Made by a program: the position numbers and the translations under genes | From: a virus | Taxonomy: Duplodnaviria > Heunggongvirae > Uroviricota > Caudoviricetes | Virus record (IMG/VR): IMGVR_UViG_2737471847_000003 | Location: 1-40,522 of that record | DNA: 40,522 bases | Reading direction: 5' to 3' (one strand) | Notes under the pieces: model-generated | The model's database searches: none | Seen by the model: only the letters and a program-made list of their open reading frames with translations | What the model was told of the DNA's origin: nothing | Shown: piece by piece, positions 26,850-27,343 of the stretch | Position numbering within the stretch: the first letter of the stretch is position 1 | Layout of the letters: each line of letters starts with the position of its first letter

Positions 26850-27083
26850 CTAATGTAACCAACTATCGTCCTCCCAGACCTGCTGCATGATTTCTATCAC
26901 TCGCTTTTTGTCTTCATCCAGTTTTAACCCGCTCAGTTCAACACCATTGGCGCTACCTTTACGGATACGAATTACCGCTTTGGGATACAGGGGGCTCAGA
27001 TTGCGGTAAAGCTCGGATTCAAGGGAGTCCAGGGTAGACTGGCTAATCTTCTGCTCTTTATCGATCATTATTTCAATGCGCAT
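26850..27083 (-). CDS. DinI-family protein (phage 186 Tum-like candidate antirepressor)
   Basis: Start set at MRIEIMIDKEQ (GAGGTGA RBS); 77 aa; MRIE... start and acidic C-terminus (...WEDDSWLH) resemble DinI. Confidence 0.65.
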   Translation of the reverse strand: MRIEIMIDKEQKISQSTLDSLESELYRNLSPLYPKAVIRIRKGSANGVELSGLKLDEDKKRVIEIMQQVWEDDSWLH

Positions 27084-27093
27084 AAAAGTCACC

Positions 27094-27282
27094 TCAACTG
27101 ATGACATCCATTGAGCGGTTGTATTCGTGGGTTCTGATTTTTGCCATGAGTTCATCAGTCAATTCAGAAACCCACTGCAGAGCCAGCCCCTTCTCTTCAT
27201 CACTACACTCACTGGCCGCTACAAGCTTAAGAAAAAAATCAATGCGCTGGAGCTTCAAAGACTCCAAAAAATAGTCCTGCAT
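27094..27282 (-). CDS. Small hypothetical protein, first gene of the LexA-controlled operon
   Basis: 62 aa from MQDYFLESLK; AGGAGG RBS 4 nt upstream; the ORF-track start at 27384 would include the LexA box and is rejected. Confidence 0.55.
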   Translation of the reverse strand: MQDYFLESLKLQRIDFFLKLVAASECSDEEKGLALQWVSELTDELMAKIRTHEYNRSMDVIS

Positions 27283-27323
27283 CTTTCCTCCTATGACACC
27301 ACACGCAATACTGTATGCATAAC

Positions 27324-27343
27324 CACTGTTTATATTTACAGTA
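27324..27343. promoter_or_regulatory. LexA (SOS) box
   Basis: CACTGTTTATATTTACAGTA, i.e. CTGT-N8-ACAG, 17/20 to the consensus TACTGTATATATATACAGTA; ~45 bp upstream of the 27282 start. Confidence 0.7.

Follow-up and report, generated by a model that had tools for sequence, protein, structure and literature searches.

A split tum operon behind a LexA box: the probable SOS induction module of a Fels-2-like prophage in the ssrA gene of Escherichia coli

SOS induction of a prophage through a Tum-type protein is an already known mechanism, represented by Tum of coliphage 186, by tumA/tumB of PSP3, by Fels-2 and by the prophage DuoHS of Escherichia coli HS. Induction of 186 runs through LexA-regulated p95-tum (PMC7708051), and full-length Tum binds the CI repressor and prevents it from binding its operators (Shearwin 1998, as cited in PMC3121763). 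The 186 record annotates full-length Tum as an inhibitor of DNA binding by CI, and the truncated products that consist only of the DinI-like part as modulators of SOS induction. In Fels-2 and PSP3 the tum gene is split, and the antirepressor of PSP3 is encoded by the upstream gene (Lemire et al. 2011, PMC3121763). Fels-2 is listed there among the relatives of 186 whose tum is split, on the authority of a paper whose title speaks of evidence that lexA null mutations are lethal because of Fels-2 (Bunny 2002, via PMC3121763). The two PSP3 genes are annotated accordingly, tumA as 'similar to 5' end 186 tum; UV induction of prophage' and tumB as 'similar to dinI and 3' end of 186 tum'. For DuoHS, wild-type cells were found to lyse after treatment with mitomycin C (MMC) (Nat Microbiol 2025, PMC12055606), and neither lysis nor viral foci were seen after MMC in lexA(Ind-) and in-frame Δtum strains (PMC12055606). 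A related logic is found in the Gifsy prophages, which, like the locus described below, combine an SOS box, a small antirepressor (GfoA/GftA) paired with a dinI homolog and a non-cleavable repressor, and whose antirepressors are able to target other prophages in trans (PMC3121763). Unlike our locus, however, they carry the dinI homolog first, their repressor family is unrelated, and they are lambdoid phages.

The DNA analyzed here (the window, 40,522 nucleotides in its full length) is a piece of E. coli chromosome that carries an apparently intact Fels-2-like prophage (Felsduovirus; P2/186 family) in ssrA. The prophage has a length of 36.2 kb and is inserted at the 3' end of ssrA, of which 47 nt are duplicated as an exact direct repeat at the two attachment sites (Table 1). 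Of the 47 Fels-2 CDS, 41 have a counterpart; with the tail-fibre (H, G-like), Fil-like and CI proteins as exceptions, most of these counterparts share 70-100% identity and are essentially complete in length. The Fels-2 genes that lack a counterpart in the window are cargo or small hypothetical genes, whereas no essential gene is missing and all of these are of essentially full length. As its own cargo, the prophage in the window carries a type II restriction-modification pair together with a dCTP deaminase of the anti-phage kind. With Fels-2, the type species of Felsduovirus, it shares the gene order of the whole genome, the integration in ssrA and a 100% identical Apl protein, and the similarity extends to the operon under study (STM2728 and STM2726.1 in Fels-2), with TumA being 98% and TumB 84% identical. 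The two phages differ in the genes that follow tumB (STM2726 and STM2723.1 in Fels-2, the restriction-modification pair in the window) and in their CI repressors, which are 58% identical, so that immunity probably differs.

The immunity region is organized as divergent cI-int and apl-cII operons, and its gene order is the same as in 186 and Fels-2. The initial annotation had assigned it a CI/Apl/CII set of the 186 type, and this assignment is borne out by the two CI domains (Phage_CI_repr and Phage_CI_C), by an Apl protein of phrog_575, by a CII protein with a Phage_CP76 domain, and by matches of CI to the 186 CI structures 2FJR (E 1.2e-27) and 2FKD. The apl gene would be the first gene of the lytic operon to be derepressed upon induction. 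No Peptidase_S24 self-cleavage domain was found in CI with Pfam. Repressors of the 186 type are not known to be cleaved by RecA. Since CI is without a detectable self-cleavage domain, an antirepressor would be needed for SOS induction of this prophage.

The candidate for this role lies on the minus strand, immediately downstream of the replication gene A. In the direction of transcription, gene A is followed by a hairpin, a putative promoter with a LexA box, an ORF of 62 aa, an ORF of 77 aa that belongs to the DinI family, and a terminator; positions 26850-27343 cover the part from the tumB stop codon through the end of the LexA box. The second ORF starts ten bases past the end of the first and in another reading frame. 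The hairpin between gene A and the operon may, from its sequence, serve as a terminator or insulator of the early (gene A) transcript. A further hairpin covers the ribosome-binding site of tumB (27088-27105), but a role for it in coupling translation of the two genes was set aside, as it folds no better than shuffled sequences (z -1.45). At the DNA level, the operon shares 93.8% identity with its Fels-2 counterpart and 92-94% with those of many phages of Klebsiella, Salmonella and E. coli. Among 5426 complete E. coli genomes, about 1260, or roughly a quarter, contain a close copy, and two of them, those of E. coli PEC1011 (NZ_CP159540) and HS4 (NZ_CP142035), match the 4.25-kb stretch 23200-27450 with essentially 100% identity. 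The operon differs from the tum operon of 186, which includes orf97, in that its terminator stands directly after tumB, and the gene products differ as well: 186 Tum is one fused protein of 146 aa with nested shorter products, whereas the window has separate ORFs in different frames.

Table 1. Coordinates of the prophage ends, the immunity region and the tum-like operon within the window
Feature	Coordinates	Strand	Evidence and remarks
tmRNA gene (ssrA)	40-402		
attL, duplicated 47-nt 3' end of ssrA	358-404	+	exact direct repeat with 36586-36632
Intrinsic terminator closing the operon	26785-26812	-	GC-rich stem and T-run (TTTTAT), hairpin 26794-26808; -20.4 kcal/mol, z -3.49
tumB-like gene, 77 aa, DinI family	26850-27083	-	Pfam DinI 80.6 bits, E 1.1e-22
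tumA-like gene, 62 aa	27094-27282	-	phrog_698, E 3.6e-38; profile homology to N-terminal half of 186 Tum
Shine-Dalgarno AGGAGG of tumA	27287-27292	-	from sequence; nearly invariant among 46 distinct upstream variants (rare changes)
LexA (SOS) box	27324-27343	.	+ strand CACTGTTTATATTTACAGTA; coding (-) strand TACTGTAAATATAAACAGTG
Putative -10 region	27338-27345	-	TATACT 27340-27345 (15-nt spacer) or TACTGT 27338-27343 (17-nt spacer)
Hairpin between gene A stop and tum promoter, overlapping -35	27355-27390	-	RNA fold -12.6 kcal/mol, z -4.24; 0/200 shuffles as good
Putative -35 TTTACA of the tum promoter (186 p95 equivalent)	27361-27366	-	read by eye; analogy with annotated 186 p95
Replication gene A	27436-29850	-	Pfam Phage_GPA, E 1.4e-127; stop codon at 27436
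cII (186-type)	32041-32550	-	Pfam Phage_CP76, 1.2e-43; 92% identical to Fels-2 CII
apl, Cox-like excisionase/repressor	32583-32825	-	phrog_6912, phrog_575; 79/79 identical to Fels-2 Apl
cI, 186-type immunity repressor, presumed TumA target	32945-33577	+	Phage_CI_repr 5.4e-31, Phage_CI_C 5.6e-28
int	33579-34592		
attR	36586-36632	+	exact 47-nt repeat

The initial annotation had described this locus as a near-consensus LexA box overlapping the promoter of a two-gene operon that ends in a DinI-family protein. The two-gene operon is confirmed by the ORFs, by the Pfam match of the second product and by the terminator. The same holds for the box itself, which is the sole match within 3 mismatches of TACTGTATATATATACAGTA in the 40.5-kb window, whereas 0 of 100 shuffled sequences gave a match. 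It agrees with the consensus at 17 of 20 positions, both of its arms are perfect, and it is the sole CTGT-N8-ACAG in the window. A weaker site overlaps it at 27309-27328. The heterology index of the box, about 4.0 as calculated with a rough matrix, is the best in the window and lies within the range of the genuine E. coli sites from which the matrix was built (0.5-9.5). The claimed overlap with a promoter stands on different ground. A consensus promoter scan called no tum promoter at the locus, the candidate hexamers being non-canonical, and the overlap of the box with the -10 region is an inference from homology with p95 of 186, where a LexA-repressed promoter likewise lies right after gene A and the box overlaps its -10. 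On the minus strand, TTTACA is followed downstream by TATACTGTAAATATAAACAGTG, which includes the box, and of the two possible -10 hexamers it is TACTGT, with its spacer of 17 nt, that reproduces the layout of the annotated 186 p95, whose -10 consists of the first six bases of the LexA site.

The conservation of the box was followed in 161 related IMG/VR loci of the Fels-2 and 186 types and in reference phages. CTG-N10-CAG occurs at a fixed offset from the start codon in 158 of these 161 loci, at a distance of 61 nt from box to start codon in the split type and of 38 nt in the fused 186 type, and throughout the arms are kept while the spacer is variable. Among the distinct upstream variants of the split type, 45 of 46 retain the box, which shows 0.5 variants per site as compared to 1.86 in its flanks (about 4-fold less). 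The flanking DNA of the 186/PSP3 types and that of the Fels-2 types are otherwise unlike and not alignable, but the position of the box is kept; PSP3, which shares the split tumA/tumB arrangement with the window, has the box TACTGTATAAATATACAGTA upstream, and the 20-nt box of the window is identical in Fels-2 and in DuoHS. As the region is AT-rich, one could think of the box as a chance palindrome with no regulatory role, in an operon that is constitutive or otherwise controlled. We regard this as extremely improbable in view of the failure of all shuffles to produce a match, of the position kept in 186, PSP3 and Fels-2 types despite their unalignable flanks, and of the block of induction by lexA(Ind-) in DuoHS, a prophage with the identical box (PMC12055606). 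The box is a probable operator, and LexA would be expected to bind at exactly this site.

The product of the first gene, TumA, matches phrog_698 and gives cross-matches to phrog_8554 and phrog_1993; all three families are also matched, at corresponding profile positions, by the first 61 residues of 186 Tum. When a profile of the TumA family, built from 29 diverse homologs, was aligned with 186 Tum by hhalign, a probability of 94.7% (E 6.3e-8) was obtained, with residues 3-44 in register. When compared pairwise by BLASTP, the 62-aa ORF matches neither 186 Tum nor PSP3 TumA, so that the homology rests on profile methods. PSP3 TumA itself belongs to phrog_1993 (E 2.7e-32) and is marginally similar to TumA of the window in hhalign (E 0.004, 8% probability); PSP3 further differs from the window in being an Eganvirus with a longer CI. 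In a phmmer search of 1.84 billion representatives with the single TumA sequence we recovered 66 clusters, nearly all of them stand-alone proteins of 55-75 aa, and no significant match to a fused Tum-like protein. The AF2 model (pLDDT 88.9) predicts a two-helix hairpin with helices at residues 2-22 and 28-61. A Foldseek search of this model against the PDB returned generic helical hairpins, such as the small subunit of ExoVII and designed proteins, with none at E <0.001; with so generic a fold, a structure search yields no further information. Profile comparison relates TumA by homology to the N-terminal half of 186 Tum.

The second product, TumB, is a clear member of the DinI family (PF06183), scoring far above the Pfam cut-off of 24.2 bits (Table 1) over profile positions 1-63 of 63. 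The match spans residues 15-77 of a 78-codon translation of positions 26850-27086, while the tumB ORF itself encodes 77 aa. TumB is 39% identical to residues 71-145 of 186 Tum (E 8e-23), 84% identical to PSP3 TumB, and matches the E. coli DinI structure 1GHH at E 5.7e-8. It stays below the cut-off of the NCBIfam DinI equivalog model (NF007893; 47.6 versus 111 bits), and by these scores it is a phage paralog of the TumB type and not chromosomal DinI itself. A recombination junction occupies the 3' half of tumB, which is freely variable beside an unchanging TumA. Since TumA resembles the N-terminal half of 186 Tum and TumB its C-terminal half, the window carries, by homology, a split tum, in which a tumA-like gene precedes a tumB-like (DinI) one; in 186 the corresponding N-terminal module and the DinI-like C-terminal module act within one protein, whose target is a CI of the same type as that found here.

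The question then is which of the two genes encodes the antirepressor. The initial annotation had looked to the DinI-like protein, and it is this part of its proposal that we cannot follow. The DuoHS locus (ECHS_RS04495/ECHS_RS04500) is the most informative in this respect. As in the window, it lies after gene A behind the identical 20-nt LexA box, its TumA is identical to that of the window in 61 of 62 residues, and it has the same DinI-like second gene in the same gene order. It differs in its CI (44% identical), in the downstream cargo and the 3' half of tumB, and in its integration near ybjL, whereas the prophage of the window resides in ssrA. The primers used for the Δtum deletion, NHR24 and NHR28, fuse the ATG to a TGA directly before GGTGACTTTTATGCGCATTG (PMC12055606 supplement), and both junction sequences occur exactly and once in the window, at 27280-27302 (start of tumA) and at 27074-27096 (stop of tumA). 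As these junctions match its start and stop, the 'tum' of the DuoHS study is the upstream 62-aa ORF. The deletion spares the DinI-like gene and its Shine-Dalgarno sequence; it removes only the upstream ORF, which is also the gene to which the activity of PSP3 was attributed. The DuoHS deletion marks the 62-aa gene as necessary, its sufficiency being a separate matter; a polar or coupling effect on tumB may have contributed, and TumB may have a cooperative role.

It could be argued that TumB is nevertheless the antirepressor or an obligatory part of it, with the two ORFs together forming a non-covalent equivalent of full-length 186 Tum. The active form of 186 is annotated as the full-length fusion including the DinI-like half, tumA and tumB are always adjacent and co-transcribed, and the DuoHS deletion speaks to the necessity of the upstream ORF only. 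We nevertheless consider this reading unlikely, because induction of DuoHS was lost although tumB and its Shine-Dalgarno sequence were intact, PSP3 activity is ascribed to the upstream gene alone (PMC3121763), the 186 record reserves CI inhibition for the full-length protein and calls the DinI-only products SOS modulators, and the 3' half of tumB varies freely next to a constant TumA. TumA is thus probably the CI antirepressor, and an assay of the DinI-like protein for relief of CI repression would probably have a negative outcome. TumB is probably a modulator of RecA/SOS rather than an antirepressor, acting at RecA filaments, as its family and the 186 record suggest.

From the sequence features, homologies, conservation and synteny observed at this locus, we consider it highly probable that the operon is the SOS induction module of the Fels-2-like prophage, a LexA-repressed tumA-tumB pair in which TumA inactivates CI. 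In a lysogen, host LexA bound to the box would keep the two-gene operon silent. Upon DNA damage, RecA-stimulated self-cleavage of LexA would derepress the operon, and TumA would bind the non-cleavable 186-type CI, presumably by direct contact, and end its hold on the lytic promoter. Inactivation of CI would then allow expression of Apl, CII and the replication and late genes, leading to excision and lysis, while TumB would most likely tune the response via RecA filaments without inactivating CI itself. The prediction of an SOS-inducible prophage, unlike P2, which was made in the initial annotation, is therefore well supported, in particular by DuoHS, a prophage with a near-identical module that responds to MMC but no longer does so in a lexA(Ind-) or Δtum background (PMC12055606).

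The sensitivity of the CI in the window to TumA is extrapolated, because this CI is only 44-58% identical to those of the relatives (44% to DuoHS CI, 58% to Fels-2 CI). The CIs of Fels-2 and DuoHS are, however, only 41% identical to each other and yet paired with TumA proteins that are 98% identical; from this pairing, together with the conservation of the N-terminal domain of CI, it can be inferred by analogy that the CI of the window is TumA-sensitive as well. Alternatively, the operon might be SOS-regulated in a prophage that is not productively inducible, owing to a mismatch of TumA and CI or to an unseen defect, and might then act only as a modulator of the host SOS response. The divergence of CI from those of the two experimentally studied relatives would be compatible with such a state, point defects are invisible to ORF lengths alone, and carriage of a tum gene is no guarantee of the release of infectious phage, as exemplified by BTP5, a tum-carrying Salmonella prophage that gave no detectable infectious phage, whether MMC was added or not (PMC7067206). 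We judge this to be quite unlikely nonetheless, given that the N-terminal domain of CI is well conserved across all CI types that occur with the same TumA, that nearly the same TumA serves Fels-2 and DuoHS in spite of their dissimilar CIs, and that the essential genes of Fels-2 all have counterparts of essentially full length between two exactly matching att repeats.

A separate observation concerns the distribution of TumA relative to CI. The loci retrieved from IMG/VR with TumA of the window, i.e., the best 80 of 592 tblastn-confirmed matches, all encode a TumA that is 100% identical. A full-length CI could be extracted from 59 of the 80, and these CIs, compared together with those of Fels-2 and the window, fall into at least ten lineages that are 34-72% identical to one another. 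Their mean identity amounts to 77% in the N-terminal DNA-binding domain, where many residues are invariant, and to 47% in the C-terminal domain. The 186 group shows the same decoupling, with identities of 83-100% for the N-terminal half of Tum but of 38-100% for the N-terminal domain of CI. It is gene A, and not the immunity region, that the antirepressor module accompanies. Co-variation of TumA or Tum with CI, which would have spoken for a specific pairwise contact, was looked for and not found, TumA being invariant across at least ten CI lineages.

Because one TumA accompanies at least ten CI lineages that share a conserved N-terminal domain, it is tempting to speculate that TumA is a broad-spectrum antirepressor recognizing a conserved surface of that domain, so that related prophages would have private immunity but shared induction. 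We put this forward tentatively, as an idea that falls slightly short of being probable. A literature search on broad-spectrum TumA or cross-induction in P2-family phages surfaced no paper. If the idea is correct, SOS induction of any Fels-2-like prophage, or a tumA gene carried on a plasmid, could also induce heteroimmune relatives residing in that cell, as has been shown for the Gifsy antirepressors.

The gene that probably carries the antirepressor function is easily overlooked. No Pfam or NCBIfam model exists for TumA, and its homologs are labelled 'hypothetical protein' in the RefSeq record of E. coli HS and under nearly all source names that we have seen, whereas its DinI-like neighbor attracts a functional label; readers and annotation pipelines will therefore probably assign the function to the wrong gene. 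With regard to the host, the prophage in ssrA and its cargo should be mobilized by DNA-damaging agents, e.g., mitomycin C or fluoroquinolones. Beyond this single prophage, the occurrence of one TumA with many CIs suggests that cross-induction might be possible among heteroimmune prophages of the P2 family.

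A single, identical TumA (the probable antirepressor of CI) was found, among the best 80 of 592 IMG/VR matches, together with at least 10 CI lineages that share 34-72% mutual identity; conservation among these CIs lies in the N-domain (mean identity 77%), and their C-domain varies (mean 47%). The 186-type Tum is likewise decoupled from its own CI. In the prophage studied here, two 20-nt direct repeats (GATYCAATATTTGATACATC; see table for all coordinates) with a start-to-start spacing of 30 nt lie between the repressor gene cI and apl, and are likely operator elements for CI or Apl.

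In addition to the main LexA box upstream of tumA, we identified a second, weaker site of LexA type, whose coding-strand sequence is CAGTGGTTATGCATACAGTA. It shares 5 nt with the main box, is placed between the putative -10 element and the ribosome-binding site and has a heterology index of about 8.8, calculated with a rough matrix. Relatives mostly retain its ACAG arm, and the opposite arm reads GTG, not CTG. The site may represent a tandem operator or a chance resemblance. Between the stop codon of gene A and the tum promoter, a stable hairpin (-12.6 kcal/mol, z -4.2) overlaps the putative -35 element of this promoter, and it may end the early transcript, sparing tum from read-through from the lytic operon.

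TumA is listed as a "hypothetical protein" in nearly all public sources (entries P0001-P0120) and as a "Levan regulatory protein" in one UniRef entry, and the entries are often over-extended (84-106 aa) and read through the LexA box. We found no model for TumA in either Pfam or NCBIfam, and annotation pipelines therefore assign a function only to its DinI-like neighbor.

Immediately past tumB, the gene of this DinI-like protein, the prophage carries a type II restriction-modification pair as cargo. A survey of 5426 complete E. coli genomes showed this cargo in only two. Since similarity to related prophages fades within the 3' half of tumB, and sequences past the stop codon match no better than at random, this position forms the edge of a variable cargo hotspot. 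An anti-phage dCTP deaminase, encoded inside the prophage with int on one side and attR on the other, is a second defense cargo. Additionally, a 237-aa ORF at the edge of the prophage is an orphan cargo gene, because it has no match in Pfam, PHROG or PADLOC; a counterpart was also sought in Fels-2, and none was found.

Features of the prophage and its flank
Feature	Coordinates	Strand	Remarks
237-aa ORF	576-1289	+	between attL and ogr
Invertase and tail-fiber segment	8656-10525
Cin/Gin-type DNA invertase	8656-9228	-	Pfam Resolvase + HTH_7
Restriction-modification pair	23595-26616
Restriction enzyme, BbrUII/HgiDII family	23595-25553	+	NCBIfam NF050001, 752 bits (cut-off 550)
m5C DNA methyltransferase	25576-26616	-	convergent with restriction enzyme gene
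tumA	27094-27282	-
Second LexA-like site	27309-27328
Hairpin	27355-27390	-
Direct repeats	32881-32930
cI	32945-33577	+
Anti-phage dCTP deaminase	34606-36363	-	NCBIfam NF041025, 420 bits; PADLOC dCTPase
P4-type integrase	36836-38077	+	Arm-DNA-bind_3, Phage_int_M and Phage_integrase domains

A P4-type integrase, the second integrase of the window, is located just beyond attR, directly outside the prophage, and the ssrA locus therefore holds two integrated elements in tandem. The Cin/Gin-type invertase adjoins alternative tail-fiber and assembly ORFs, the same arrangement as in Fels-2, and the segment that they form probably switches the host range of the phage.
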